A DNA stretch of 64,000 bases from a bacterium (GTDB lineage: Bacteria > UBA8248). Position numbers and translations under genes: made by a program. The stretch spans positions 3,136,001-3,200,000 of the forward strand of contig OZ241875.1 in NCBI GenBank assembly GCA_965203325.1, written 5' to 3'. The notes beneath the pieces are model-generated. The model did no database searches. It saw nothing but the letters and a program-made list of their open reading frames with translations, and had not been told where the DNA came from. The first letter of the stretch is position 1; the number at the start of each line of letters is the position of its first letter. Of the stretch, positions 3 to 56,132 are shown in pieces.

Positions 3-260
3 CGTGTGGACGGCCACCCCGTCGCCGCCAATCTCTCCTTCGATTACGGCGACAGGATATATCTCTACAACTCGGGCTTCGACCCGGTGGAACACGAACT
101 GAGCGGGGGTCTGGTGCTGCTCGCCCACAACGTGGACGAGGCGATTCAGGCGGGGCGCTCCAGCTTCGACCTCTTGCGGGGCGATGAGGCCTACAAGTAC
201 CGCTTCGGCGCGCGGGATGAGCGCGTGATGCGCGTGTCGATCAAGAGGAGTAGCGAATGA
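3..260 (+). CDS. GNAT-family acetyltransferase (CelD/BcsL-like), 5'-truncated by window edge
   Basis: YLYNSGFDP...SGGLVLL...FDLLRGDEAYKYRFG is typical of the Acetyltransf_6 C-terminus; overlaps next start (ATGA). Confidence 0.75.
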   Translation, partial: RVDGHPVAANLSFDYGDRIYLYNSGFDPVEHELSGGLVLLAHNVDEAIQAGRSSFDLLRGDEAYKYRFGARDERVMRVSIKRSSE

Positions 261-5332: not shown

Positions 5333-6610
5333 ATGATACAGCCGGGCGCTACATCTTTACGGAAGATCGCGGTTGTCGGGAGAGGAACCGCAGGCTCCCT
5401 TGCGGCCGCCAAGGTCACTCGTCTTCTGCCCGAGAGCGACCATGAGCTGCACCACATATATGACTCGCGTATCCCGGCCCTCGGCGTGGGCGAAGGCAGC
5501 TGGCCGAGCCTGGTTCAGGAATTGCAGGAACTGACGAATCTGCCCCATGAAACCATCCAGCAGCGCTTGAATGGAACGCGCAAGTACGGCGTGACGTTCG
5601 AGGGATGGGGCCGGCGCAACCAGGACTTCACCCACTATTTCACGCCGCAACAGGTGTCCTACGCCTACCACCTGTCCGTCGACTTGATGGCGGACCTGCT
5701 GCATGAAAGCACGCGCGCGCGCCACATCGACGCGAAAGTACTCGATATCACCAGGGTGGAAGGCGGCGCGCAAGTGGAATTCGAGGGCCTGCCGCCGGAG
5801 CGCTACGACCTGGTTTTCGATGCTCGCGGATTTCCCCGAGAACTCGATCCCGAACGGCACATCGAACTCTCTTTCATTCCCACCAATACAGCCGTCATCC
5901 GCCGCTGTCCGGCAATCGTCGAAGCAGAGCAGGACGGACCGGTTCTGCAACCTACCTATACCCGGGCGGTTGCGCGTCCGCATGGTTGGATAGTCGTTAT
6001 TCCGCTTACGGCACACACATCCTACGGGTACGTCTTCAACCGAGACGTATCCGGCCTTGACGAAGTCGAATCGGACTTTGACGCTTTCCTCGAAAGCGAC
6101 GGCGTGTCGGAATTCGAGCAGCGCGCCGTCATTCCGTTTCCCAATTTCGTCCACCGCCGGATATTCGACGGCGCGGTAGTCCGCATCGGCAACGCAGCCG
6201 CTTTCATGGAACCCCTCGAAGCAACGGCGATCGTATCCGGACAGGTGGAGGTCGGGATGGCTCTCCAAATACGCCTGAACCGTTCGGCAGACCATCTCGA
6301 GCGTGACGCGCCGGTGGTCAATCGATTCCTCATCAACAACATGCTCTGCTTCGGCTTGTTCGTCGGTTGGCACTATTCCTGCGGCTCGAAGTACGATAGC
6401 GAATTCTGGAGATACGCCCGCGACCACGCCTGGCCGCAGCATCGAAAGGTGGCGGACCCTGAGTTCGTGGATTGCGACGCGCTCCGCAAATTCGACGAAA
6501 TGATTGAACTGAAGAACCAGTCGATCATTGACAAATCGGACTGGAATCGGACGTTGGCGTACTTCCCTCTCTCCTGTTATTGCCAGATGTCCCAGGGGCT
6601 GGGCTGCTAG
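5333..6610 (+). CDS. Tryptophan-halogenase-family flavin-dependent halogenase
   Basis: GRGTAG FAD motif, GVGEG, KYGVTFEGW (catalytic Lys region), GWIVVIPL (WxWxIP variant), FMEPLEAT. Confidence 0.8.
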   Translation: MIQPGATSLRKIAVVGRGTAGSLAAAKVTRLLPESDHELHHIYDSRIPALGVGEGSWPSLVQELQELTNLPHETIQQRLNGTRKYGVTFEGWGRRNQDFTHYFTPQQVSYAYHLSVDLMADLLHESTRARHIDAKVLDITRVEGGAQVEFEGLPPERYDLVFDARGFPRELDPERHIELSFIPTNTAVIRRCPAIVEAEQDGPVLQPTYTRAVARPHGWIVVIPLTAHTSYGYVFNRDVSGLDEVESDFDAFLESDGVSEFEQRAVIPFPNFVHRRIFDGAVVRIGNAAAFMEPLEATAIVSGQVEVGMALQIRLNRSADHLERDAPVVNRFLINNMLCFGLFVGWHYSCGSKYDSEFWRYARDHAWPQHRKVADPEFVDCDALRKFDEMIELKNQSIIDKSDWNRTLAYFPLSCYCQMSQGLGC

Positions 6611-6654
6611 GCGCCGGTCTTGGGAAATTTCAACATCGGTTGATTCTACGCCAT

Positions 6655-6748
6655 TGGTTTGGCCCCCCCGAGTCAAGAAACGAGGAAACGGAGGATGGCC
6701 AGGAAGGTCTGCAAGTCGGAGAAGATCGTTTGTCTGCTGCGTATGGAG
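6655..6748 (+). pseudogene. IS3-family left-end remnant with orfA fragment
   Basis: TGGTTTGGCCCCC end, GGAGG RBS, ATG 6695 encoding MARKVCKSEKIVCLLRME, resembling IS3 OrfA N-termini. Confidence 0.5.
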
Positions 6749-6757
6749 TCCGTTTCA

Positions 6758-6915
6758 GGCCGTTGAAAAAGTCCCCGCCCTGTGGTTTCGTATAATTTTC
6801 AGCGCCCGTGAGGGGGAATCTCCGGAGATGTCGGGACGCAGACGGCGCGAGCAACCGGAATTGTTCGCGGCCGGTTCTCTGGAGCAACTCATCCCGGAGG
6901 ATAACGATCTGTTCC
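6758..6915 (+). pseudogene. IS5/IS1182-like left end and transposase N-terminal fragment
   Basis: GGCCGTTGAAAAAGTCCCC end, TATAAT, ATG 6828 encoding MSGRRRREQPELFAAGSLEQLIPEDN, then similarity is lost. Confidence 0.6.
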
Positions 6916-7048
6916 GTGCAACGGCAATCCGCTACTCCCAAACCGTGACATTTCTTGATCTGGATTGCCTGTAATTTTATGAGATATTTCCAAATGGGGT
7001 GAGATTTTTCACCTTGCCTGATTGCTACAAGGAGGCTACTCTGCGGTC

Positions 7049-7600
7049 GTGTTCAACAATCCGTTCGACTCATTTCATAAAACTGTTGCCGAAGCGAAGG
7101 AAGAACGCGAACAACTCGATCGGCTACTGACAGTTTCCACGCCGCGGGAGCGTCTGCTTGTCGCCGCCATTGCGCTTTTGCTGTGCATCCTCTCGGCATG
7201 GCTTTTCTTCGGCAACGTGGCTCGTAATATTGTGGTAGACGGCGCACTGGTCAAACAGGGCGAAAACTTGCCCGAGGGCAGACGGTCCGTGCAGGTCCTC
7301 GTCTGGGTCGAGAGCGGCATCGTTCCTCATATCGAGGCCGGGATGCCGGTGATGATTGAGCCGGATGCGGCAGACGGAGAAACAGGCGCACTTGCCGGAG
7401 AGGTCAGGGCGATTTCTGCCGTGCCCTTTTCCGGGGGGCTGGCTGCGTTTGGGTCCGCAGCGCCGGTGTCCGTGTACCGCATTGATATCGCGCTCGAAGA
7501 AAGTCTCGATTTGAGTTCCCTTGCGGGCAGGAAATGCCGGATTGTCATAGAGCTTGGCAGGCAATCTCCGATCGCACTATTTCGAATGAGGCGGTCATAA
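7049..7600 (+). CDS. Short NHLP-system secretion/HlyD-like membrane protein
   Basis: EQLDRLLTVSTPRERL + one TM helix and C-terminal RQSPI motif of NHLM secretion proteins; GTG 7049 follows AAGGAGG (track start 7022). Confidence 0.65.
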   Translation: MFNNPFDSFHKTVAEAKEEREQLDRLLTVSTPRERLLVAAIALLLCILSAWLFFGNVARNIVVDGALVKQGENLPEGRRSVQVLVWVESGIVPHIEAGMPVMIEPDAADGETGALAGEVRAISAVPFSGGLAAFGSAAPVSVYRIDIALEESLDLSSLAGRKCRIVIELGRQSPIALFRMRRS

Positions 7601-7601
7601 G

Positions 7602-9812
7602 ATGCCGTCTCTCACCTCCCCAAAAGCCGGCGATAAGGCCTCTTCGGACACATCGGCGCAGAGGGTAACCACGCCGATTCTGCTGCAGATGCATGTTTCA
7701 GAATGTGGCGCCGCCTGTCTCGGCATCGTACTGGCCTACTTCGGGCGTTGGGTGCCGCTTACCGAATTGCGCGAAAAATGCGAGGTGAGCCGGGACGGCA
7801 GCAGCGCCGCAAGCATCTTGCGCGCCTCCAGACACTATGGTCTCGAATGCAGTGGGCTCAGCATACGCGCCGAACAACTGAAAAAGCTGGAGTTGCCCTT
7901 GATTTTGTTCTGGCAATTCAGCCATTTCGTTGTCCTCGATGGATTCGATGGACGCTATTTCTATCTCAACGACCCCTCCACGGGGCGGCGCAGGGTTTCC
8001 GCCGAAGAGTTCAACAAGGGCTACAGTGGCATTGCGCTTCGTTTCAAGTGCGGCGCCGATTTCAGGCCCGGAGGCGAGCAACCCGACTTGTTCAGGCAAT
8101 TGGGCGCCTTGCTCTCCGGATCATGGAGTGTGCTTACCGGGGTGATTGCCTGCGGACTCATGTTGACGTTATTGACATTGATTATTCCCGCATCTCTCGG
8201 TGTTTTCGTCGACGATGTAATGAACAAACATGGGTCCTGGGGCGGATTGGTGACTGCCTTGCTCGGCGGCGGCGTCCTGGTATACGTCCTGTCCTTGCTC
8301 AAACACCGGTTCCTCAAGCGGCTCTCGGTCCGCTTGTCGGTGATTGGGTACAGTCGCGGCATGTCACGGCTGCTGCGGTTGCCGGTGGAGTTTTTTGAGC
8401 ACAGACTGGCGGGCGATCTGACCGATCGAGTCTCGTCCACCGACAGAATCGCCAAGAATCTGGCGGATCAGTTTCTTGTGCTCATCATCGACATGGCGAT
8501 GAGCGTGGTGTTGCTCGTGGCGATGTTCACCTACGATATCCTGCTCACGCTGGTTGTGCTTTTGCTGGCCCTTCTGCACGGGATGTTGGCCCACTTTCTC
8601 AACGCCCTCCGGGTTGTTCGAAGTCAGGCGATGAGACGCGAGCAGGGGTTGCTGATTGGCCTCGGTATGCAGATGTTGAGTCACGCGGACAATCTGCGCA
8701 TGACGGGAGCGGATGACCGGTTTTTTTCGCGCTGGAGTGGTCAACAGGCGCGTGAACTGCGTGCGCGCCAACTGTATTCCGAACTGGGCTCCGTCAATAC
8801 CTCGCTTCCGGGGCTGATTGACGCACTCCGCAGTGCGGCGATTCTCGGCATCGGGGGCAGTTTGGTCATGACCGGAGAAATGACCCTGGGGATGCTGGTC
8901 GGGTTTTACATCCTGGCGGAGATGTTTCTGGCTCCCGTCAAGCGATTTTTGGAGTTTGCGGAAAACCGTCAGGCGCTCGAAACCGATATGCAACGGTTCG
9001 AGGACATCTCCAAAACCGATGAAGATCCCGTTTTCAGCCGCAGGAGTCCGGAGCCGGAGTCAATCCCCACGTTCAACGGCCGGCTCCAGCTTGCGGGCCA
9101 ACTCGAACTGAGAAACGTCGCCTTCGGCTACAACAAGAGCCGACCGCCTTTGATAAAGGACTTCAGCCTCGTGATCAAGCCGGGGCAGCGCGTTGCCGTG
9201 GTCGGTCCCAGCGGTTCCGGCAAGTCGACCCTGGCGCGTCTGGTTTCGGGTGTCTATCAGCCCTGGTCGGGTGAAATCCTGTTTGATGGTCATCCGCGGG
9301 ATCAGGTTCCAGAAGAAGTGCTGCGGCAGTCCATATCCATGGTGGATCAGGAGATCGTGCTCTTTTCCGCTTCCCTGCGCGACAATATTACGTTGTGGAA
9401 CCCGGCCATTCCGGATGAAGTCATCTTCGCCGCGACACGGGATGCCCAGATCCATGACGAAATCCTGCTTCGAGCGCAGGGATATACGACCCTCGTCGAA
9501 GAGGGCGGGGCGAATTTCAGCGGCGGCCAGCAGCAACGCCTCGAAATCGCCCGTGCGTTGGTGGGCAATCCGACAGTGCTCATTCTGGACGAGGCTACCA
9601 GCGCACTCGATGCCGCAACGGAGGAATATGTCGATGATGCCCTGCGGCGTCGCGGCGTCACGTGCCTGATCGTTGCGCACCGGCTGAGCACCGTGCGGGA
9701 TTGCGATAGAATCATCGTGCTCGACAAAGGCGTCACGGTGCAATGCGGCACGCACGACGAGTTGATCGCGGATCGGGACGGCACGTATTACAAACTGGTG
9801 AAGTCGGGCTGA
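7602..9812 (+). CDS. NHLM peptidase-containing ABC transporter (C39-TMD-NBD)
   Basis: LQMHVSECGAACL (Cys), SHFVV (His), NDP; GPSGSGKS, FSGGQ, LDEAT. Confidence 0.92.
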   Translation: MPSLTSPKAGDKASSDTSAQRVTTPILLQMHVSECGAACLGIVLAYFGRWVPLTELREKCEVSRDGSSAASILRASRHYGLECSGLSIRAEQLKKLELPLILFWQFSHFVVLDGFDGRYFYLNDPSTGRRRVSAEEFNKGYSGIALRFKCGADFRPGGEQPDLFRQLGALLSGSWSVLTGVIACGLMLTLLTLIIPASLGVFVDDVMNKHGSWGGLVTALLGGGVLVYVLSLLKHRFLKRLSVRLSVIGYSRGMSRLLRLPVEFFEHRLAGDLTDRVSSTDRIAKNLADQFLVLIIDMAMSVVLLVAMFTYDILLTLVVLLLALLHGMLAHFLNALRVVRSQAMRREQGLLIGLGMQMLSHADNLRMTGADDRFFSRWSGQQARELRARQLYSELGSVNTSLPGLIDALRSAAILGIGGSLVMTGEMTLGMLVGFYILAEMFLAPVKRFLEFAENRQALETDMQRFEDISKTDEDPVFSRRSPEPESIPTFNGRLQLAGQLELRNVAFGYNKSRPPLIKDFSLVIKPGQRVAVVGPSGSGKSTLARLVSGVYQPWSGEILFDGHPRDQVPEEVLRQSISMVDQEIVLFSASLRDNITLWNPAIPDEVIFAATRDAQIHDEILLRAQGYTTLVEEGGANFSGGQQQRLEIARALVGNPTVLILDEATSALDAATEEYVDDALRRRGVTCLIVAHRLSTVRDCDRIIVLDKGVTVQCGTHDELIADRDGTYYKLVKSG

Positions 9813-12754
9813 TGCAGAATACAAGGCCGGAATACACGTCCATAGCCGAACTCGCCGCTCGCTTCGGCGCATCCGTGCCCTGCGCCGCCAACCTGCCGGT
9901 CAAGCTCGACGACCCGGATAGTGTCTGGTTCATCGATCAGGGTGCCGTCAATCTGTTCCTGGTCGAATTCAAGGACGGGGTGGAGCAGGCGGCGCCACAG
10001 CATCTGTTGCGCCGGGAATCGGGCTGGTTGCTGCCGGGTGTCGCCCCGGATCAACGAGACGGTGACGAGGACACGACGCTCAGCCTCATTGCCAAGGGAC
10101 AGCCGGGCACCCTTCTGAAACGTCTGCCGGCTTCCTTGCTGTCTCAGGTTCGTTCATCGGAACTGGCGGAACAGGCCGATACCTGGCTGACCGCCATTAC
10201 GGAAACACTGTCGCGTTTTGCAAGCCCCCTTCCGCGTCCGACTGCGCTGGCCGAACCCGGTCTGACGCAGACCCTGGCCCCTTGTACGCTATCCGTACGC
10301 CGCGGGGTGGTATGGGTATCCGAACCGCCGCGCGGCGCAAGCCTGTTCATGGGTATTATCGACCCGGCGGAACTTGCGGAGGCGTGCGGGCCTCACGAAG
10401 CCGTTATTCCGCTGACGCGGACAAGCTGGCTCACCTTGTTCGACGAGGCGACGCTGACGGGCGAATCTACCGAAACACTGGCGGAGCAAGGCATGCTGCT
10501 GCCGGCGCTCGCCTCTTTTCACGCGGTTGCTTTCACTCTGGAACGCCTGAACCGCCGACTGGTCGTGGCCGATGACGTCAATCTCGAACGCGCGCGGACA
10601 ACCAGCCGCCGCACGGCCGAAAATGCCGCGCGGCAGCGGCTCTTCAATATCTATGACCTTCCGATTGACCGGGATGCCGGTATCGAGGACACGGCGCTGG
10701 CGGATGCCCTGCAACTCATCGGGGACCATGAAGGAATCGATTTCAAGATACCGGCTCGCTCGGCACTTTCCGATTCTCCGGTCGGCCTCGTCGACGTTCT
10801 CGATGCGTCCGGCGTACGCGCCCGGCGCGTGCGGTTCAAAGCCGAGGGCAGCTGGTGGCGCGGCGACAGCAACGCGATGCTGGCATTCCGCGCCGAGGAC
10901 GGCCGCCCCGTGGCGCTGCTGCCGGGAATGTTCGGGCGATACCGGGAAATCGACCCGGTCAGCAAACGCCGCCTCCGGGTGACGGCGGACCGCGCGGGCG
11001 CGCTGAAAGAGGAGGCCTGGATGTTCTATCGGCCATTGCCGCCGGAGGACGTGAAACCGAAAGACCTGCTGGGAATGGCCCTGCACGGATCGGGCGCGGA
11101 TTTGGCGCGGCTGGTCATTTCCGGGCTTCCATACGGCTTGATCAACCTGCTGCCGGCGCTCGCGCTCGGGTTCGTTGCGAATCAAATTTTGGCGGGCGGA
11201 AGCGCAGAAGCGCTCTATGCCGTTGCCGTGGCGGTAGCAGCGTTCGGCCTGCTCGGCGCACTGCTGCACCTGTTTCAAAGCACGGCGATGATGCGGCTCG
11301 AGGGGCGCTCGGCATCCCGGCTCGAAGCCGCCTTCTGGGATCGTCTCATGCGCCTTCCGCCAAGCATTCTGCACCGCCATCCGGCCGGCGATCTGGCAAC
11401 CTCGGGAATGACGTTCCAGAATCTTCGCGACGGCTTGCGGGGGGTCGTCGCCGACAGTTTTCTGTCGCTCATTTTTCTGCTTCCGGTTTTCGGCGTCATT
11501 TTCTTCTACGACGCCACCCTCGGCCTCATCACCCTCGTCTTCAGCCTGGCTTCGCTGCTGGTCACCGTAGTCCTCGGGTTGCGCCAGATTCCACCTTATG
11601 GGCGTATGATCAGCGCAGCACGCCGCGTAGCCGGTCGACTGTTCCAGATCGTGGGAGGCATCTCCAAGCTGCGAATGGATAATGCGGAAGGGTCGGCTTA
11701 CGCCATCTGGGCGAAGGATTATCGTGAGCAGAAACGCGCGGAGATCGATCTGAGCGCGTTTGAGGGGCATTCGCGGGCGTTCGGCGCCGCGCTCCCTTTT
11801 CTGGCCGGCGGGGTACTGCTTTTTGCGGTGGCGTCGGCGGGAGACCGGAACATTCCGGTCGGCGATTTTCTCGTCGTTTACACGGTCTTTCTCGTTTTCC
11901 AGTCCTCCATCGCCCGGCTCGGTGAGTCCTTCGGCGCCATTGCCGCCATGCGGCCCGCGTTCGAGCAGATGGGCCCGCTGCTCTCCGCCGTTCCTGAAAC
12001 CGTGACGGAAGGAGAGCCGGTGGAATACCTGGGCGGTGAAATACTGTTCGACCGCATTTCCTTCCGCTACGACCCCGACGGTCCGTTGATTCTCGACGAC
12101 GTCACGATTCGCGCCCGTCCCGGCGAATTCGTTGCGATTGCCGGTGAGTCCGGCGCCGGCAAGAGCACCCTGTTCCGGCTCGCACTCGGCATTGACTGCC
12201 CGACCGCCGGTGCGGTGTATTACGACGGACGCGACCTGAGGCATCTGAATCTGAAGCAGGTGCGCCGGAAAATCGGCGCGGTGCCCCAATCCGTCGGACT
12301 CCATCCGCAAGATCTCTGGGACAATCTGGTCTCTCACCATGATGAAGTGGCGACGGAGGAGGTATGGGATGCGGTCCGGACCGCCGAAGTCGAAGCCCAG
12401 GTCAGGGACATGCCCATGGGCATGATGACCATGGTGGGCGCCAGCGGGTCCGTCCTCTCAGGCGGCGAGAGCCAGCGCATCACAATCGCCCGCTCGATAA
12501 TCGGCAGCCCTCGAATCATGTTGCTGGACGAGGCGACCAACTGGCTGGACAACGAAAGCCAGGCCAGGGTCATGGAGAACCTCGCCGCCCTGACTTCCAC
12601 CCGGCTCATCATTGCCCACCGGCTGTCCACGCTGGAACAGGCCGACCGCATCTACGTGCTGCAGGCCGGAAAAGTCGTGCAAAGCGGTTCCTTCGATGAA
12701 CTCAAGGAAGTCGACGGGGTATTCAAGGAATTGATCAAAAGGCAAATCGCTTGA
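9812..12754 (+). CDS. NHLM bacteriocin-system ABC transporter ATP-binding protein (no peptidase)
   Basis: ATG 9812 overlaps upstream TGA; N-terminal cNMP-like region, TMD, GESGAGKS, LSGGE, LDEAT. Confidence 0.88.
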   Translation: MQNTRPEYTSIAELAARFGASVPCAANLPVKLDDPDSVWFIDQGAVNLFLVEFKDGVEQAAPQHLLRRESGWLLPGVAPDQRDGDEDTTLSLIAKGQPGTLLKRLPASLLSQVRSSELAEQADTWLTAITETLSRFASPLPRPTALAEPGLTQTLAPCTLSVRRGVVWVSEPPRGASLFMGIIDPAELAEACGPHEAVIPLTRTSWLTLFDEATLTGESTETLAEQGMLLPALASFHAVAFTLERLNRRLVVADDVNLERARTTSRRTAENAARQRLFNIYDLPIDRDAGIEDTALADALQLIGDHEGIDFKIPARSALSDSPVGLVDVLDASGVRARRVRFKAEGSWWRGDSNAMLAFRAEDGRPVALLPGMFGRYREIDPVSKRRLRVTADRAGALKEEAWMFYRPLPPEDVKPKDLLGMALHGSGADLARLVISGLPYGLINLLPALALGFVANQILAGGSAEALYAVAVAVAAFGLLGALLHLFQSTAMMRLEGRSASRLEAAFWDRLMRLPPSILHRHPAGDLATSGMTFQNLRDGLRGVVADSFLSLIFLLPVFGVIFFYDATLGLITLVFSLASLLVTVVLGLRQIPPYGRMISAARRVAGRLFQIVGGISKLRMDNAEGSAYAIWAKDYREQKRAEIDLSAFEGHSRAFGAALPFLAGGVLLFAVASAGDRNIPVGDFLVVYTVFLVFQSSIARLGESFGAIAAMRPAFEQMGPLLSAVPETVTEGEPVEYLGGEILFDRISFRYDPDGPLILDDVTIRARPGEFVAIAGESGAGKSTLFRLALGIDCPTAGAVYYDGRDLRHLNLKQVRRKIGAVPQSVGLHPQDLWDNLVSHHDEVATEEVWDAVRTAEVEAQVRDMPMGMMTMVGASGSVLSGGESQRITIARSIIGSPRIMLLDEATNWLDNESQARVMENLAALTSTRLIIAHRLSTLEQADRIYVLQAGKVVQSGSFDELKEVDGVFKELIKRQIA

Positions 12755-12829
12755 TTCGGATACGCAGATAGCAACCCGGCGGCAAAAATGCGCGTCCGGC
12801 CGGATCCTGCGAAAATGGAGTAGCCGTCC

Positions 12830-14131
12830 ATGAAGAAACCCTTTGACGCAGCGGATTCCCTTGTGTCGCGGGCCGGCGAGGACGACGACTTCAGGGAGCG
12901 TCTTCTCGCCAAACCCAAAGAGACCATCGAAGCGGAATTCGGCGTGACGATGGCCGAAGGCCACGAGATTCACGTGCACGAAGACACCTATGCCGAGACG
13001 CACCTCGTCCTTCCGCCGCGCAGCAAATTCACCGAGGCGGAACGGGAGGAGGCGAGAACCGGTGCGGAATCTCTCGATTTCCTTCGCAAAACCATGCACG
13101 ACCCCGCGCCGCCCCTCCGTCCGCCCGTCGTTCAGGGGGAGATGGCCCCGAAGGCCGCCGCCACCGCCGAGGCGCTTGCGAAAGCGGGCAGAGAAGCCAT
13201 CCGCCGCGGTCTCGATTTCCTGGAATCCACGATAGACGAAAACGGCGCTTGGCACTGCATCCGGTTCAACGTGGCCGATCCGGAGGTGCCGCGGCATTTC
13301 GAAAGACCTCCCTTCGTATCGGCTTTCTGCGTCCTCGCCCTGGAATGCTGCGAGGAAGCGCGCGCCAGGGCCATCTGCGCCGCGAGCAGGGCGTATCTCG
13401 CCGACACGGTCGAATATCCCGGATTCTGGCGCTATTACCGCCATCTGCCCCCGGATCTCGACAGCACCGCACTGTGTTCACTCGTGATTGGCGCTCATCC
13501 CTGGATTTTGCTGGGGAGGAACGTTCCGCGGATACTGGCGAACCGCGACGAGGAAGGCCGCTTCATGACCTGGGTTCTCGAAGACGACGAACCCGATGTC
13601 GTGTCGCCCTTTCGCATCGAAGCCGACCCCGTGGTCAATGCGAACGTCATCGCCTGTCTCGGCGGCCACCCTGAAACCAAAGATGCCCGGCGATGGCTGG
13701 AAGCCCTGATAACCGAGGGCAATCTCGCGGGCTCCTCCAAATGGTATCCCGACGAGGTCGCCATCTATTATGCGGCCGCCCGCGCCATGGTCCGCGCACG
13801 GCCCGCTCTCGATCGGCTGCGCCCGGTACTGGCGGAGCGCATCCTGGGCTTGCGGGACGAGGAGGGGGATTTCGGCAATATCCTCCAAACGGCGCAGGCC
13901 GTCTCGGCGCTCCACCACGCGGGACGCCTCGACAGCATCGACGCGAAGCGCATGGTGGAGAGGTTCACGGGTTCGCAGCGTGAGGACGGTAGCTGGCCGG
14001 AACTCCTCGCGTTCGGCGACCAGACGCTGAAGTGGGGCGCGGTAGGGCAGATAGGGCATGGCTCCGAAGCCCTGACCACGGCGTTTTGCATCGAAGCACT
14101 CGAGCGTCTCGTCGCAGTCTTGGGGGCCTGA
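12830..14131 (+). CDS. NHLP leader-like domain fused to prenyltransferase/class II terpene-cyclase-like alpha-alpha barrel
   Basis: aa 9-78 align without gaps to the precursor leader; PPDLDST (DxDD-like), QW-like LDFL..TIDENGAW and SQREDGSW, DPVVNANV. Confidence 0.75.
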   Translation: MKKPFDAADSLVSRAGEDDDFRERLLAKPKETIEAEFGVTMAEGHEIHVHEDTYAETHLVLPPRSKFTEAEREEARTGAESLDFLRKTMHDPAPPLRPPVVQGEMAPKAAATAEALAKAGREAIRRGLDFLESTIDENGAWHCIRFNVADPEVPRHFERPPFVSAFCVLALECCEEARARAICAASRAYLADTVEYPGFWRYYRHLPPDLDSTALCSLVIGAHPWILLGRNVPRILANRDEEGRFMTWVLEDDEPDVVSPFRIEADPVVNANVIACLGGHPETKDARRWLEALITEGNLAGSSKWYPDEVAIYYAAARAMVRARPALDRLRPVLAERILGLRDEEGDFGNILQTAQAVSALHHAGRLDSIDAKRMVERFTGSQREDGSWPELLAFGDQTLKWGAVGQIGHGSEALTTAFCIEALERLVAVLGA

Positions 14132-14213
14132 AATTTCTTGCAGGTCAAGGCGCTCGGGGATAAAATATCTTCCGGTCCAAGGGACACGATATGACTACCT
14201 TTGAGGAGCTGAC

Positions 14214-16610
14214 ATGCCACAAAGCCCGGTTGTAGGTGGTGGCTCCGATTCGAGCAACGCCGGCGCCGCTCAGCCTATCGAGCCGTCCATCCTGACCGCC
14301 ATTCCGCATTATCTGCCGTTGGTCGTTTTTCCGCTGATTCTTCTCGGCGCGCTCTATGGCGGCTGGTGGCTGTTGCCGCCGCTCGTCTTTATGAGTCTGG
14401 CCGGGGCGCTCGATCGGGCGCTGGGCCGGGACGGACAAACCATGGATCCGGTGAAAACGCCGGAACACCGCCTGTTCTGGCACAATCTGCCGGTCTGGTC
14501 GTGGTCGTTTCTGTGGCCGCCGACGCTCGTTTTCGGTATGTGGCAAATCCTGGCGGCGGATCAATTCTCATGGTGGGAAGGCGTGCTCCTGGCGGTCATC
14601 CTGACGATGGAAGCGCAAGCCGTGTTCGTCGTCGGCCACGAGATGATTCATCGGCGCACGACCTGGGAGCGCCGGGTCGGCGAGTTCCTGCTCGCCTCCG
14701 TCTCCTATCCGCAGTACGCGACGGAACACGTCTATATCCACCATGCCCTGGTCGGCACGCCCTACGACGTGGGTTCCGCCCCGAAGGGGGAGAGTTTCTG
14801 GAAGTATTTCCCCAAGGAAGTCGTCAGCAACCTCGTCCATTCCTGGGAAGTCGCGGGAGAACGCCTGGCGCGGCGCCGTCTGCCCGTCTGGCATTACGAC
14901 AATCCGTTCTGGCGCTACGCGATAGGCGTCGCGTTCTGGTACGCGCTGGTGTACTGGATGGGCGGGATCTGGGCCGTTCCGGTCTTTATCTTCCTCGGCC
15001 TGTCCTGCGTCTTTTCGATGAAGATGAGCAACTACTTTCAGCACTACGGCCTGCGGCGGGTCCGCCTGGAGAACGGTCGCTGGGAAAAGGCGATGCCGCG
15101 CCATTCCTGGAGCGCCGACTGGAAGTTCAGCAACTGGATGTTTTTCAACATGCAGCGTCATGCGGACCATCACGCGGTGGCGTCGCGCCAGTATCCCCTG
15201 CTGCAGGTCAGCGGCCTCGATGAGTCGCCGGAACTGCCGGGAACCTACGCCGACATGATGAACATCGTGCTGCGGCCCAAGCGCTGGTTCGAGAAGATGG
15301 ACCCGCTGGTGGACCAGTGGCGCGAGCATTTCTATCCGGATATCGACGACTGGAGCCCCTACGACAGCCCGATTGCCGCGGCGCGGCCCGACGCCTTCGA
15401 CGCGATACTCGAGATATTCGGCGCCGCCCCGCGGCTCGCGAAATGGATTGAGCGGAATCCGGAGCTTCTGGATAACCTGCAGGACCAGGAATTCCTCGAT
15501 CTCGACCTGCCGAAAGGGTTCGGGCCGGATGCGGAATACGAAGCGATTGCGCGGCGCGGGCTGGCGAGAGTCTACTGGACGTACGAAATGGACGTTCCGG
15601 AATTGAAGGGTCTGGTCGCCGAACTGCCGGTGGCCGACGCGAGGGAAACCGCCGAGATTGTGCGGAACTGGTCGAACGACAAGGCGTTTCAGATCGGCAT
15701 GCACGTCATGCGCGGAAACCTGCTGCCGGCGGAAGCGAGTACGGCGCTCTCGAATCTCGCCGAAGCATCGATTTCGACCGTGCTCGCCTCCGTGGTCGCG
15801 GATTACGTCGACCGCTTCGGGACGCTCAGCGTGGGCGGCGTCGCCGCCGTTTTCCTGGGCGATCTGGCCAGCCGGGAAGCATACCCCGGCGTTGGAATCG
15901 AAATGCTGATCCTACACAACGGCCGTCAGTCCGGCGAAAATGAACGCATGTTCGGGAGCTTCCGAAAGTCGCTGAGCGACCTGTCGCAGGACAGCCTGTT
16001 GTTCTCCCCGGTCCCGCACGGCTCGAATTCCATTCCTGCGTTGACGCTTTCCGATCTGGCCGAGAGTTTCGGAAATTCGACTTCCGGCGAGGTTCCCGCC
16101 CTCACCAGGGCGCGTTGCGCCTTCGAGTATGAAGGTTCCGATATCGCAGACCGCTTCGAGGAGGCGCGGCGCCGGATACTGACCGAATACAGCGCGAACA
16201 GGTCTTTGCCCGACTGGTTGCGCGAGTGGACCGAAGAGGGCGCCGAAAAAAACGTGTCCGCATACGCCCGGATGCGCGGCGGGCTGAACGATGTCGAGAA
16301 GGCCGCGCGCTACCTGCAGTTGGAGCGCGGCGGAAGCTTCCTCGACGACCCGGCGCCGAGCGCTGCGGCGGTGTTCGATGCCGCCGGCGCCGAACCGCTG
16401 GCGCAAGCCGCGGTCATGTGGCGGGATTTGCAGGGCGTCATGCGCCTCGTCGGCGAGGAAGGGTTCGACGCGGCGGCGGGGGGGACGAAGGTCAAATCCC
16501 TGATTGCGAACGCTTGCGGGCAGGAGGATTTCGATGTGCTGGCGTCGGCGGTCACCGAAACCGCATCCGTCGCCGCCGCCCGGATCGATACGCTTTTTTC
16601 GCGCACATAA
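14214..16610 (+). CDS. AlkB-type membrane diiron hydroxylase/desaturase fused to degenerate GlnE-like nucleotidyltransferase domain
   Basis: His boxes HEMIHR, EHVYIHH, NYFQHYGL, QRHADHH; C-half with GAAPRLAKWIERNPELLD, LSNLAEA, LGDLASRE, RGGLNDVEKAARYLQL. Confidence 0.8.
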   Translation: MPQSPVVGGGSDSSNAGAAQPIEPSILTAIPHYLPLVVFPLILLGALYGGWWLLPPLVFMSLAGALDRALGRDGQTMDPVKTPEHRLFWHNLPVWSWSFLWPPTLVFGMWQILAADQFSWWEGVLLAVILTMEAQAVFVVGHEMIHRRTTWERRVGEFLLASVSYPQYATEHVYIHHALVGTPYDVGSAPKGESFWKYFPKEVVSNLVHSWEVAGERLARRRLPVWHYDNPFWRYAIGVAFWYALVYWMGGIWAVPVFIFLGLSCVFSMKMSNYFQHYGLRRVRLENGRWEKAMPRHSWSADWKFSNWMFFNMQRHADHHAVASRQYPLLQVSGLDESPELPGTYADMMNIVLRPKRWFEKMDPLVDQWREHFYPDIDDWSPYDSPIAAARPDAFDAILEIFGAAPRLAKWIERNPELLDNLQDQEFLDLDLPKGFGPDAEYEAIARRGLARVYWTYEMDVPELKGLVAELPVADARETAEIVRNWSNDKAFQIGMHVMRGNLLPAEASTALSNLAEASISTVLASVVADYVDRFGTLSVGGVAAVFLGDLASREAYPGVGIEMLILHNGRQSGENERMFGSFRKSLSDLSQDSLLFSPVPHGSNSIPALTLSDLAESFGNSTSGEVPALTRARCAFEYEGSDIADRFEEARRRILTEYSANRSLPDWLREWTEEGAEKNVSAYARMRGGLNDVEKAARYLQLERGGSFLDDPAPSAAAVFDAAGAEPLAQAAVMWRDLQGVMRLVGEEGFDAAAGGTKVKSLIANACGQEDFDVLASAVTETASVAAARIDTLFSRT

Positions 16611-16643
16611 AACGCGCCGGCCGAGCAGACGCGGAAACCCCGG

Positions 16644-18962
16644 ATGCCAACCCAGACGAAACGGAATCCCCCACGCGGGATATTGACGAAAACGACGCCT
16701 GCGGACCAGGGCCTCGTCGAGCTCCCCGCGCTCACCCCGCACCTGCAGTTCCGCGAAATCGACGAACGGCAGACGCTGCTGGTTTCCGAGTCGTTCGATA
16801 CGCTGCTGCACGGCGGCCTGTATGGCGATCTGCTGCCGCTTCTCGACGGCCGTCACCCGCATAACGAGATCGCCGCCGCCCTCGATGGCCGCCACCCCGC
16901 CGCCGATGTTCACGCGGCGATTGTTTCGCTCTCCGCCAGAGGCTATGTCGTCTCCGCCGATCATGGCATGGAACGGCCCCGGGCGGCCTACTGGTCGTCG
17001 CTCGGCGCATCGCCCCGCTGGGTCGAAGGGCGGCTGGCGCAGTCGCGAGTCGCGGTCGAAGGTGACGACGGCCGCCTCGTCCGGCACCTGGAAGAGGCCG
17101 GCATCGATATGGCGACCGGCGACCCCAAGCTCACCGTTGTCGTCTGCGAGGATTATCTCGACACACGGCTTGCAGAGGTGAACCGGCGCGCGCTCGAGGC
17201 GGGAGCGCCGTGGATGCTGGTGCGCCCGCGCGGAATGGAGGCGCTGTTCGGGCCCGTCTTTCGCGCGGATAAAGAAGGGCCCTGCTGGGAGTGCCTGGCT
17301 TGCCGCCTGCGCTGCCATAAGGAGGTCCACAATTTCCTGCGCAACTTCGCCGGTGAGGAAGCCGCCTTCAAGCCGTTCGCCGCCGAGTCCGGGGTCCTGG
17401 AGTCGCTGTACGGAATGATCGCGGCGGAGATCGTCAAATGGCTGGTGCTGGATGAGGCGGCCCCGATTCACGAGAACGCGATAGCGATGAACCTCGCCGC
17501 GTTCGAAAGTTCCAGGCATCCGGTGATGCGCCGCCCGCAGTGCCCCGCCTGCGGCGATGAGTCGCTCTATCGGCCGGACCGGCCGCCGGCGCCGCTTTGT
17601 CTGAGAGCGAGTCCCAAAACCCATCGCAACAGCGGCGGCGCGCGGGCCGTGACGCCCGAAGCGACCCTGGCGAAATACCGCCACCTGGTGAGCCCTGTCG
17701 GCGGGGTCGTTACATGGCTCGCGCGCACGACCGATGAGAGCGACTCCTGGCTGCACGTCTATTGGGCCGGGAGCAACCCCGGGGCGAGAAGCCGGAGCCT
17801 GAGTTCGCTCAGGCGCAGTTTGCGCAGCAAGAGCGCGGGCAAGGGCAGCACGCGGGAACAATCCGAGGCCAGCGCCCTGTGCGAGGCTATCGAGCGTTAC
17901 TCGGGCGCCTGGTGCGGAGACGAAATCTGCATCCGCAGGCGGTTCAACGACCTGGCTGCGGAAGAGGCGGCAATCCATCCCAACGATGTGCAGTTGTTCA
18001 GCGATTATCAGCTCGACAACGCGGAGAGCATCAACGCGAAAGGCCACCCGTACAACATCGTCCCGCCGCGTCTCGACCCCGATGCCGAAATCGACTGGAC
18101 CCCGGTCTGGTCGTTCACGCAGCGGCGGCATCGCTATCTGCCGACGTCGATGCTCTACAGCATGTCTCCCGAAGGGCGCGGCGGCGCCGATCTGATTGCC
18201 GACTCCAACGGCTGCGCCGCGGGGAACACCCTGGAGGAGGCCATCCTGCAGGGCTTCTATGAACTGGTCGAGCGCGATGCGTTCGCCATCTGGTGGTATA
18301 ACCGACTGAGAGCGCCCGGGGTCGATCTTTGCGGCTTTGACGACGAATTCCTCGCCTCGGCCGCGGGGTACTACGGCCGCTGCGAGCGGGAAGTGTGGAT
18401 GCTCGACGTTACCTCCGATATCGGGATTCCTTCGTTCGTCGCGCTATCGCGCAGACCGGACGCGGACACCGAGGACATCATATACGGCGCAGGCGCCCAT
18501 GCCGACCCGCGGCTGGCGGCCCTGCGCGCGGTTTGCGAGCTGAACCAGTGCCTTACCTGGCTGCCGCGTCCCGGCGGGGGCGACGGCAAGCCCATGATCG
18601 ACGATCCGCTGGCGCTCAGTTGGTGGAAGACGGCTCGACTTGCCGATTGTTCCTGGCTGGCGCCGGCACCGGACGCGCCGCTCAGGCAAGGCTCGCACTA
18701 TCCGGTGATCGAATCGGCGGACACGCGCGACGACGTGGAGCATTGCCGGGCGTTGGTGGAAGCCAAAGACATGGAGTTCCTCGTGCTGGACCAGACCCGG
18801 CCGGACATCGGGATGCCGGTTGCGCGGGTCATCGTGCCGGGCATGCGCCATTTCTGGGCGAGATTCGCGCCCGGGCGCCTCTACGACGCGCCCCTCGACA
18901 TGGGACGCCGCGAACACCCCCTGGCCGAAGCTGATTTGAATCCCGCGCCCGTGATCGCGTAA
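16644..18962 (+). CDS. TOMM cyclodehydratase, fused RRE/E1-like-YcaO
   Basis: GPCWECL...CPAC, SAGKG, SALCEAIERYS, SNGCAAG..ELVERDA, Pro-rich C-terminus LNPAPVIA. Confidence 0.92.
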   Translation: MPTQTKRNPPRGILTKTTPADQGLVELPALTPHLQFREIDERQTLLVSESFDTLLHGGLYGDLLPLLDGRHPHNEIAAALDGRHPAADVHAAIVSLSARGYVVSADHGMERPRAAYWSSLGASPRWVEGRLAQSRVAVEGDDGRLVRHLEEAGIDMATGDPKLTVVVCEDYLDTRLAEVNRRALEAGAPWMLVRPRGMEALFGPVFRADKEGPCWECLACRLRCHKEVHNFLRNFAGEEAAFKPFAAESGVLESLYGMIAAEIVKWLVLDEAAPIHENAIAMNLAAFESSRHPVMRRPQCPACGDESLYRPDRPPAPLCLRASPKTHRNSGGARAVTPEATLAKYRHLVSPVGGVVTWLARTTDESDSWLHVYWAGSNPGARSRSLSSLRRSLRSKSAGKGSTREQSEASALCEAIERYSGAWCGDEICIRRRFNDLAAEEAAIHPNDVQLFSDYQLDNAESINAKGHPYNIVPPRLDPDAEIDWTPVWSFTQRRHRYLPTSMLYSMSPEGRGGADLIADSNGCAAGNTLEEAILQGFYELVERDAFAIWWYNRLRAPGVDLCGFDDEFLASAAGYYGRCEREVWMLDVTSDIGIPSFVALSRRPDADTEDIIYGAGAHADPRLAALRAVCELNQCLTWLPRPGGGDGKPMIDDPLALSWWKTARLADCSWLAPAPDAPLRQGSHYPVIESADTRDDVEHCRALVEAKDMEFLVLDQTRPDIGMPVARVIVPGMRHFWARFAPGRLYDAPLDMGRREHPLAEADLNPAPVIA

Positions 18963-18971
18963 GGAAGCCAT

Positions 18972-20090
18972 ATGGATATCGACGAAGCAATCACGCTTAC
19001 CCAGGACCGTCTCGCCGAAGAAGGCGGCGCCATGGGAGATTTGCTCGGGCGCTTTCGGGGCAGGATTTCACCGGTTCTGATCGGAGATCCGGGGTGGGAG
19101 CGCATACTCGAATGCGCCGGGAAACTCCCAATCACCATGGGCGCCCAGCCGTTCGGTTTCGAGCTGCCTCTGCATGACGCTCGACCGGTGGCGGATTTCG
19201 GCGTCTCGCTGGCGAGCGGAAACCGCTCGGGTGATTTTTTCGAAGAGCGGGCGCGGACCGACGAGACGGACGAGACCGCGAGAGCGGTCGGGCGGCTGTT
19301 CCGGGAAATGGAAGCTCCGAACTCGCCCCTGCGGGAGATTGTGGGACGCAAGTTGATGCTGGAATACGACATAGATTCCGCGCCGGGCGGTAACAATCCG
19401 CTTCCCGGAATGTTCCTGCGGCCCAACGAGCGCACGTTATACGGCGGCGCAGGCCTCCAGAATGATATCGGAATCGTGGTGGACGCCCTCGTTTCCTGCG
19501 TCGGCTGGGAAAGGAATGCCGCTGAACGGGAAAACGCCGAACGGGTTTATCTGGCCCAGCCCGAAGACACGCGCCTGGATTCGTTCGGGGTATTCCCGTC
19601 CCGGGAACGCACAATCCGCCTGGCGATCATGGACTTCAAATCGCAGGGGGAAGTATGCCGCTATCTTGAAAACACGGGTTGGCCGGGTGATATATCGGCC
19701 GTCGAGTCCGTGATTTCACGCTTCCGGGAACGCGCGGATATCGTCAGAACCGGATTGAATATCGACGTGCGCGAAGAGGGTGTCGGTCCGGCGCTCGGCC
19801 TGACGCTTATCGTCAAACACAGATATACGAAAGATTCACGTTCTTGGCTCGACGGCCTGACCGATTGGGACGCATTTCTGGAAGCCTTGCGCCATGAGGA
19901 CCTTGTCGTTCCGGAGAAGGTTGAGGCGCTTGCCGAGTGGGTTTCAAAACCGACGACGCTTTTTGCCAAATCCGGGCCATTTTTACTGTTGCGGGGCATT
20001 CACCACATCAAGCTGGTCATATCCGGAGATCGGCTCAGGCAGGTCAAGGCCTATGTGTTCATGGTGCTTTCCGGAGCGGTCTCGGTTTGA
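18972..20090 (+). CDS. Hypothetical protein of the RiPP operon; candidate ABBA-fold prenyltransferase
   Basis: AAGGA RBS, 9 nt after YcaO stop; FGFELPL..ADFG, LEYD, HHIKL..VKAY; fold assignment is inference. Confidence 0.5.
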   Translation: MDIDEAITLTQDRLAEEGGAMGDLLGRFRGRISPVLIGDPGWERILECAGKLPITMGAQPFGFELPLHDARPVADFGVSLASGNRSGDFFEERARTDETDETARAVGRLFREMEAPNSPLREIVGRKLMLEYDIDSAPGGNNPLPGMFLRPNERTLYGGAGLQNDIGIVVDALVSCVGWERNAAERENAERVYLAQPEDTRLDSFGVFPSRERTIRLAIMDFKSQGEVCRYLENTGWPGDISAVESVISRFRERADIVRTGLNIDVREEGVGPALGLTLIVKHRYTKDSRSWLDGLTDWDAFLEALRHEDLVVPEKVEALAEWVSKPTTLFAKSGPFLLLRGIHHIKLVISGDRLRQVKAYVFMVLSGAVSV

Positions 20091-20113
20091 GAGCTACCCT
20101 GGCAAAATAAAGC

Positions 20114-20148
20114 AAAAATCCCCTCGCCGAAGTCGAGCGGGGGATTTC
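20114..20148. terminator. Bidirectional intrinsic terminator between operon and convergent precursor
   Basis: AAAAATCCCCTCGC...GCGGGGGATTT hairpin with A/T flanks. Confidence 0.6.
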
Positions 20149-20203
20149 TGACTTTTACATCATGCGGATTCGAGGCATCCGCGTGCCGACTGGTGTTTCC
20201 GGT

Positions 20204-20455
20204 CTACCAGCAGCAGCAAAGGCCGGCCGAGACGGCTTCGAGTTGCTCCTCGGTGATGTTCGGATCCGGCGGCAACGCAATATGCACCGTCTGCATGTCG
20301 CTCTCATGGACCACGACATTCATCGAGTCGGGAATCGTGATGCCCAATTCCCCACAGATGGTCCCCTTCGGGTCTGAGAGCAGCTGTTGCCTGAAATCTG
20401 CGTCCAGGGCGGATTTCTCGACAATCTGCTTCAACATTTCATCGCCACTTCTCAT
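20204..20455 (-). CDS. NHLP-family RiPP precursor, predicted core LCCCW
   Basis: DADFRQQLLSDPK, VHE, LPP, ITEEQLEAVSAG cleavage motif; perfect AAGGAGGT RBS 5 nt before ATG. Confidence 0.92.
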   Translation of the reverse strand: MRSGDEMLKQIVEKSALDADFRQQLLSDPKGTICGELGITIPDSMNVVVHESDMQTVHIALPPDPNITEEQLEAVSAGLCCCW

Positions 20456-20510
20456 GGCTAACCTCCTTGGTAAGGTTTGATGAACAACACAACCTCATGT
20501 AATGAAACCG

Positions 20511-20540
20511 ATCTTATTCTTCGTTATTTTGCAAAGTCAA
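20511..20540 (-). promoter_or_regulatory. Putative sigma70 promoter of the precursor
   Basis: TTGACT-18 nt-TAAGAT on minus strand with A-tract upstream. Confidence 0.5.
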
Positions 20541-20788: not shown

Positions 20789-21022
20789 CAGGGGATAAAG
20801 GCACCCCCCCCTACCCCCCTTTGTCAGGGGGGCAAGAAAAAGCAAAGCCCTCTCAGCCCAGCGGGGGCGCATCGCCTTTTTATACCCCCCTGACAAGGGG
20901 GGGGTAGGGGGGGTCCTTTGACAAAGGCTTTTTCAATAACCCCGTAGGGGCGGTTCGCGAACCGCCCCTACAAAATCCCATCGCGTCGAACCTTCATATT
21001 TCGGGACTTTTTCAACACCCCC
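20789..21022. repeat. MITE-like repeat (inverted copy at 55949-56132) plus GTAG-type REP at 20944-20971
   Basis: CCCCCCTACCCCCCTTTGTCAGGGGGG / CCCCCCTGACAAGGGGGGGTAGGGGGG arms; perfect palindrome GTAGGGGCGGTTCGCGAACCGCCCCTAC; CTTTTTCAA ends. Confidence 0.85.
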
Positions 21023-55948: not shown

Positions 55949-56132
55949 GGGGCTGTTGAAAAAAACCTCGCCAAGGGAGAACCCCCCCTACCCCCCCTTG
56001 ACAGGGGGGTATAAAAAGGCGATGCGCCCCCGCCGGGCCGAGAGGGTTTTGCTTTTTCTTGCCCCCCTGTCAAGGGGGGGTAGGGGGGGTTGTCTTTATC
56101 CCCTGACAAAACGGGCTTTTTCAACAACCCCC
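55949..56132. repeat. MITE-like element with TIRs; inverted copy of 20789-20943
   Basis: GGGGCTGTTGAAAAA ... TTTTTCAACAACCCC. Confidence 0.88.

Follow-up and report, generated by a model that had tools for sequence, protein, structure and literature searches.

It is very probable, on the combined evidence of translation, family models, homologue searches and gene content, that the open reading frame at 20204..20455 is an orthologue of SrpE from the srp cluster known from the literature (srp standing for sponge-derived RiPP proteusin), and that the window, by which we mean the whole stretch of 64,000 nucleotides that was analysed, holds this cluster complete, at 5333..20455. The srp locus in the window has all its parts intact and is under selection. 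The precursor and its five-residue core LCCCW are real but already known, having been in print since 2021; the novelty implied by the original prediction is lost with that, the exact precursor and core having been published in that year and studied since. The founding description of the cluster is said to be that of Nguyen et al. (JACS 2021).

Identity of the precursor and its neighbourhood

Translation of 20204..20455 on the minus strand gives an 83-aa product whose C-terminus, ...EEQLEAVSAGLCCCW, runs directly into TAG; with the core set apart, this terminus is ...NITEEQLEAVSAG-LCCCW and TAG comes next. The leader_NHLP model TIGR03793 covers srpE residues 6-78 at 66.6 bits, above its cut-off of 50.9, which places the leader within that family, and the leader bears the double-glycine signature (G78 at -1, A77 at -2, and hydrophobic V75 at -4, L72 at -7 and I67 at -12). 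The features by which SrpE is recognised are present: LCCCW stands right after the Gly-type cleavage motif, N-L/I-T-E-E-Q-L occupies residues 66-72, and both a YcaO protein (SrpC) and a flavin-dependent Trp brominase (SrpI) are co-located, at 16644..18962 and 5333..6610, respectively. In the window the leader motif reads N66-I-T-E-E-Q-L72, with residue numbers as in the NLTEEQL 66-72 of published SrpE. The assignment to SrpE, SrpC and SrpI is made by motifs, residue numbers and gene content. The features of the locus are collected in Table 1.

Table 1. Features of the srp locus, with positions counted from the first nucleotide of the window
Feature	Position	Strand	Basis
SrpI-like flavin-dependent Trp halogenase	5333..6610	+	Pfam; solved relatives including MibH (E 5.5e-23)
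HlyD-like adaptor fragment of NHLP secretion system, 192 aa	7022..7600	+	family search; same length in relatives
NHLP-family export ABC transporter with N-terminal C39 peptidase, candidate leader peptidase	7602..9812	+	TIGR03796
NHLP bacteriocin export ABC transporter, permease/ATPase subunit	9743..12754	+	TIGR03797-like
433-aa protein, NHLP-leader-like N-domain plus predicted single-domain class II terpene cyclase	12830..14131	+	family search, predicted fold
798-aa fusion of membrane di-iron FA_desaturase-family domain and GlnE-like nucleotidyltransferase	14214..16610	+	family search
SrpC-like YcaO cyclodehydratase, LynD/TruD type, full-length	16644..18962	+	LynD (E 2.5e-164)
372-aa protein, predicted ABBA (PT-barrel) aromatic/indole prenyltransferase fold	18972..20090	+	predicted structure
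GC-rich hairpin flanked on each side by a U-rich tail, candidate two-way terminator	20109..20155	.	folding
srpE, 83-aa NHLP/proteusin precursor	20204..20455	-	translation, family model, homologues, srp literature
srpE stop codon TAG	20204..20206	-	translation
srpE core LCCCW	20207..20221	-	translation
srpE leader, residues 1-78	20222..20455	-	translation
Ribosome-binding site AGGAGG, 6 nt before ATG	20462..20467	-	sequence; GGAG-type sites likewise placed in related loci
Promoter-like site TTGACT-18 nt-TAAGAT, A-rich tract ahead	20511..20540	-	scan and conservation

Among the neighbouring genes, the halogenase has the peptides DFTHY, with Tyr102 as its last residue, and FTPQQVSY, which closes with Tyr110, at positions identical to those of the published SrpI peptides, and the YcaO protein combines a winged-helix leader-binding domain with an E1-like domain. 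The C39-bearing exporter scores 854.3 bits against the TIGR03796 cut-off of 853.3, with Peptidase_C39 at E 6e-33, and its C39 domain keeps Gln-x5-Cys, which we take to be the C39 peptidase motif. The second exporter subunit has ~316 extra N-terminal residues ahead of its TIGR03797 match for which the family search returned no match; its reading frame overlaps the end of the preceding gene by 70 nt.

The available parts of the srp papers describe the same system. There, the SrpE core is LCCCW; its three thiazolines come from SrpC and the bromine on its terminal Trp from SrpI (PMC10858898, PMC10286304), the bromination being leader-dependent through NLTEEQL (PMC10858898). LCCCW is treated as the physiological pentapeptide core, and the modified core, once cut from a chimeric leader by the C39-type peptidase LahT150, could no longer be brominated; the self-bromination peptides of SrpI are DFTHY (Tyr102) and FTPQQVSY (Tyr110) (all PMC10286304). 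The accessible text of the preprint 10.1101/2023.06.09.544420 reports 191 near-identical LCCCW precursors across phyla in four sponges, with an ITEEQL consensus, and a single 252-bp precursor gene that is transcribed disproportionately highly in sponges; two further sponge surveys find the same widespread cluster type. The window thus shares with the published cluster an 83-aa (252-bp) NHLP precursor, its core and its motif at 66-72, together with a YcaO protein, a Trp halogenase carrying the Tyr102/Tyr110 peptides, and an occurrence in many bacterial phyla in sponges (PMC10286304, PMC10858898). The one difference noted, Leu67 in the published SrpE as against Ile67 in the window, corresponds to the ITEEQL variant of the preprint. 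In keeping with these papers, the srpE relatives at the best 80 of 247 related loci come from metagenome-assembled genomes (MAGs) of many phyla, the closest of these loci belonging to unclassified and Nitrospinota MAGs, and the DNA itself occurs in runs labelled sponge metagenome from several studies.

The genome itself, a single 4.39-Mb contig, carries srpE once. A second copy had been suggested by P0003, a relative that is 98% identical, 81 aa long, ends in LCC and has no source listed; it was ruled out by the single copy found. Outside the window, two further NHLP-type reading frames lie at C1:1912250-1912474 (plus strand, 40% identical to SrpE) and C1:3711043-3711255 (minus strand, 31% identical), and other proteusin clusters may therefore exist in this genome. 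The srpE product also touches on nitrile hydratase alpha in Pfam; its reading as a nitrile hydratase fragment, or as non-coding DNA, was ruled out by a dN/dS of ~0.06 and by the gene context.

A further comparison is the methanotroph MprE/MprC/MprD system, which shares the NHLP leader with its L(X)4L motif and the YcaO-installed azolines (PMC10286304, PMC12455567); among PDB entries, the window precursor finds its best sequence match in the solved structure of the MprE7 leader, 8TB1 (E 4.3e-10). It differs in its longer and varied cores, in having an azoline oxidase partner and in having no halogenase, and MprC rejects the SrpE leader (PMC10286304, PMC12455567).

Predicted prenyltransferase-like and cyclase genes

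Two operon genes extend the SrpE reading towards an end product that would be a peptide-terpenoid hybrid, in which the 372-aa protein would prenylate the core and the 433-aa cyclase would cyclise the attached chain. Prenylation would most plausibly take place on the C-terminal Trp, at its indole, cyclisation would proceed via protonation from Asp211, and thiazolines and bromine would form only part of the decoration. We give this extended reading an even chance. Both genes lie in the operon and are commoner near srpE than the halogenase: among 53 loci with full 10-kb flanks (genes more than 10 kb away being uncounted), 48 have the cyclase, 42 the prenyltransferase-like gene, 40 the YcaO gene and 23 the halogenase. 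That further genes of the cluster are conserved suggests that the published two-step chemistry is incomplete. The 798-aa fusion, with its His-box desaturase domain, is present at 32 of the same 53 loci.

The structural model of the 372-aa protein, built from 27 homologues (pLDDT 89.0, pTM 0.88), is predicted to adopt the PT-barrel fold. Its top matches are ABBA prenyltransferases only, with 132 chains at a Z of at least 8; the best Foldseek matches are AmbP3, FamD1, EpzP and CloQ, and superposition on MpnD gives Z 16.8 and rmsd 4.7 over 309 aligned residues (VIA-align). Sequence comparison speaks against the assignment. The protein matches no Pfam or NCBIfam family and so stands outside the described prenyltransferase families; none of 87 members of its family has a prenyltransferase Pfam match, the only two Pfam matches over these 87 relatives being at chance level and to unrelated families, and the family profiles (A1, A5) find no meaningful PDB sequence match. 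The family comprises 988 representatives at 50% identity, and the best 150 of these include no prenyltransferase-cyclase fusion and no protein longer than 540 aa. On its modelled fold, the 372-aa protein may act like an ABBA prenyltransferase that belongs to no known sequence family.

For the 433-aa protein (model pLDDT 76.7), an alpha/alpha-barrel cyclase fold is predicted for the C-domain, which superimposes on drimenol synthase with Z 29.3 and rmsd 2.6 over 280 aligned residues and on MstE with Z 26.6. Glycosidases of similar fold reach only Z 17-18, well below the class II cyclases, and the Foldseek matches to class II cyclases agree with the structural alignment. Profile alignment places both the catalytic Asp of a DxD(D/T) motif and a QW-type motif: the counterpart of the invariant D209-L-D211-S-T in drimenol synthase is D-L-D-T-T, D211 corresponds to the position occupied by N in the D333N mutant entry, and the QxxDGSW motif (QREDGSW) aligns with the QW repeat of squalene-hopene cyclase. 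The N-domain (about residues 9-70) is NHLP-leader-like and 36% identical to SrpE, so that the protein, a predicted cyclase with a leader-like domain of its own, looks like a natural leader-enzyme fusion.

Precedents exist for both halves of the proposed chemistry. According to the review PMC13290415, the prenyltransferase-cyclase fusions NctPC/ChrPC of Hubrich et al. (Chem 2024) act on Trp of RiPPs, which is prenylated (geranylgeranyl) and whose chain is then cyclised by an MstE-like class II cyclase; the likeness of the window to this system is a predicted one. NctPC uses an ABBA-barrel prenyltransferase, the fold predicted for the 372-aa protein. NctPC and ChrPC fuse the two activities, whereas the window has separate genes and its cyclase is fused to an NHLP-leader-like domain. 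In Paenibacillus alvei, PalQ attaches a prenyl group to the C-terminal Trp of PalX, an NHLP precursor that shares with SrpE the NHLP-type leader, a short core and the conserved C-terminal Trp; PalX differs in its 8-residue core DNVRRFFW, which has no Cys, and in having no YcaO partner, and PalQ, an enzyme of the trans-isoprenyl diphosphate synthase type, lacks the ABBA fold and has no accompanying cyclase (PMC10853753).

What weighs against a terpenoid decoration, besides the missing family matches and fusions, is that its support is fold prediction and that the srp literature searched is silent on it, so that it may have gone unreported or been tried without result. In that literature, which left Nguyen 2021 and Hubrich 2024 outside its scope, no prenylation or terpene cyclisation of SrpE was found, and a search for proteusin/NHLP systems with a terpene cyclase or a sponge prenyltransferase gave no title or abstract opening pointing to SrpE. 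Nor did the srp literature searched (the founding 2021 paper again outside scope) contain a description of the natural srp end product. Going by the modelled folds, it is a tentative and somewhat doubtful proposition that the RiPP cluster with the widest distribution in sponge microbiomes makes a peptide-terpenoid hybrid and not merely a brominated tri-thiazoline pentapeptide.

Leader, core and stop of the precursor

In the maturation that we propose, the 78-residue NHLP leader of SrpE would serve as a folded recognition handle. The LynD-like YcaO protein of the SrpC type would cyclodehydrate the three Cys of LCCCW to thiazolines, and the SrpI-type flavin halogenase would act before leader removal, placing bromine on C6 of the C-terminal Trp. 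Cleavage after Ala-Gly78 and export of the modified pentapeptide would then fall to the C39-peptidase ABC exporter. srpE would be transcribed from a promoter of its own, towards the enzyme operon, which would allow a much higher expression of the precursor than of the enzymes. Thiazoline formation, Trp-6 bromination, leader dependence and high transcription are literature results for orthologues and would apply to the window copy by analogy; for the cleavage site in vivo, export, promoter use and any further tailoring, we infer the steps from the locus.

A different fate of the leader has to be weighed here. The leader might stay in place, so that the whole modified 83-aa protein with its hydrophobic modified C-terminus would be the functional molecule, much like a lipid-anchored protein. 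The leader is indeed unusually conserved across phyla, its median identity to the window copy being 88%, compared with 72-82% for the enzymes and transporters (seven genes) and only 64% where the short HlyD-like gene is concerned; in addition, the published brominase is described in the available text of PMC10858898 as working without the structured N-terminal half, and very high transcription is reported in the accessible part of the preprint (10.1101/2023.06.09.544420). However, the cluster contains an NHLP-specific exporter whose C39 domain stands above the equivalog cut-off with Gln-x5-Cys kept, positions -4, -7 and -12 are hydrophobic and, like the Ala-Gly site, in line with double-glycine leaders, and having to serve several leader-dependent enzymes would be reason enough for the leader to be conserved. 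We consider retention of the leader improbable and favour its removal after Gly78 by the exporter.

Classical proteusins such as PoyA, the polytheonamide precursor, resemble the window srpE in their NHLP leader of ~80 residues and their sponge symbiont origin. The PoyA core is tens of residues long and yields a large peptide product, in contrast to the 5 residues in the window srpE. A protein search in a collection of 5.8 billion proteins returned 643 srpE relatives, of which the best 120 were counted together with the query. Among these 121 proteins, 114 end in SAGLCCCW, five in SAGLSCCW (P0055, P0082, P0083, P0099, P0117) and two, the 81-aa proteins P0003 and P0025, in SAGLCC; 118 are exactly 83 aa long. 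In the 81-aa LCC form, which has no Trp, neither bromination nor prenylation on Trp is possible. When prokaryotic genomes were scanned, with each species represented once, 247 loci encoding an srpE relative were located, and in all of the best 80 of these the 83-aa frame ends in SAG-LCCCW-stop, the stop codon being TAG in 45, TAA in 33 and TGA in 2.

The metagenome contigs point the same way. One metagenome contig (run X1) spanning 20051..20232 is identical to the window, the srpE stop included, and among the 40 listed of 83 differences to contigs aligned from four public runs, none lies inside 20204..20221. As an observation on these contigs, the summed depth rises 10- to 50-fold over window positions 20206..20307, the 3' half of srpE, with many contigs differing at synonymous sites, a pattern that fits many taxa per sponge having a nearly identical srpE 3' half. 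Across 3240 pairs from 81 srpE coding sequences, the median pN is 0.059 against a pS of 0.548, and over the five core codons pN is 0.000 against a pS of 0.500. By this codon comparison, the srpE peptide is evidently under strong purifying selection and more than recently copied DNA.

Because all 80 loci stop identically with three different stop codons, it is excluded with near certainty that the stop is premature, recoded or due to faulty assembly; a longer true core, which has in its favour the general expectation of proteusin cores tens of residues long and nothing else, is extremely improbable in the face of this shared stop position, the uniform length of 83 aa, the contig that matches every letter across the stop and the same core in published SrpE (PMC10858898 and PMC10286304, as far as their available text goes). 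The 78-aa leader and five-residue core of the original prediction are accordingly borne out at the sequence level: homologues keep exactly SAG, then LCCCW and the stop, in the best-listed proteins and loci alike, longer cores do not appear at the 80 loci, and the TAG is covered by the metagenome contig without any difference.

Transcription of the precursor and meaning of the locus

The precursor gene had also been described as lying opposite in strand to the enzymes and as having a strong ribosome-binding site and a promoter of its own. The first two hold, srpE being convergent with the plus-strand genes at 5333..20090 and AGGAGG being found 6 nt ahead of its ATG. The promoter stands on conservation and not on prediction from the single sequence, where a sigma-70-like scan upstream of srpE found 1 site against 0.9 expected from shuffles, which is chance level. 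In an alignment of the window with 10 loci chosen from the 80 as its nearest relatives, two orphan srpE copies included, TTGAC, the spacing, TAAnAT and the A-tract of the promoter-like site (20540..20511) are kept in 11 of 11, the sequence further upstream being unrelated. The strict pattern TTGACN-16..19-TANNNT occurs no more than 150 nt from the start at 33 of 79 loci; the control windows at -300..-150 lack it altogether. The case for an srpE promoter is made by this conservation in relatives and not by the scan.

Between the convergent genes, the hairpin has a folding energy of -47.9 kcal/mol (z -4.1), a value that none of 200 shuffles equalled; a terminator pattern scan did not flag it. 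The convergent layout is itself widespread. Among the 74 loci with at least 1.6 kb downstream, taken from the best 80 of 247, 56 have the 372-aa gene no more than 1.5 kb away and on the opposite strand; of the other 18, it was not found in the examined flank in 16 and is on the same strand in 2. Given the layout, the conserved promoter-like element, the hairpin and the published transcript data, a separate and strong transcription of srpE from its own promoter is supported, at the level of sequence comparison for the window copy. The independent supply of precursor that had been predicted gains support from the same convergent loci, from the element travelling with the gene, from the hairpin and from the transcription reported in the preprint.

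Several related observations concern extra copies and repeats. Some relatives, at the loci L012, L016 and L017 (one related-MAG contig) and at L024, L038 and L053, carry extra srpE copies, which have no srp enzyme gene in the examined flank, yet are preceded by the same promoter-like element; one related genome has three srpE copies, only one of which adjoins the enzymes. Just upstream of the srpE promoter region, at 20798..20919, there is a GC-rich palindromic repeat of ~125 nt (51-nt arms, 76% complementary), with another copy near 55978..56106 of the window. It has 90 matches in its own genome, both strands counted, resembles a REP/MITE-like element, and shows a depth spike of roughly at least 100-fold at 20798..20919 in four sponge-associated runs.

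Lastly, the cluster in the window is one more genome for a published and very widespread srp family, and as such it changes little. It is useful as a clean and complete reference copy of srp, in which every gene is intact and the precursor promoter is defined. If prenylation and terpene cyclisation were true of it, the peptide-terpenoid reading would explain why thiazolines and bromination alone have led to no natural product, and these two modifications would give concrete masses to seek in sponge metabolomes.
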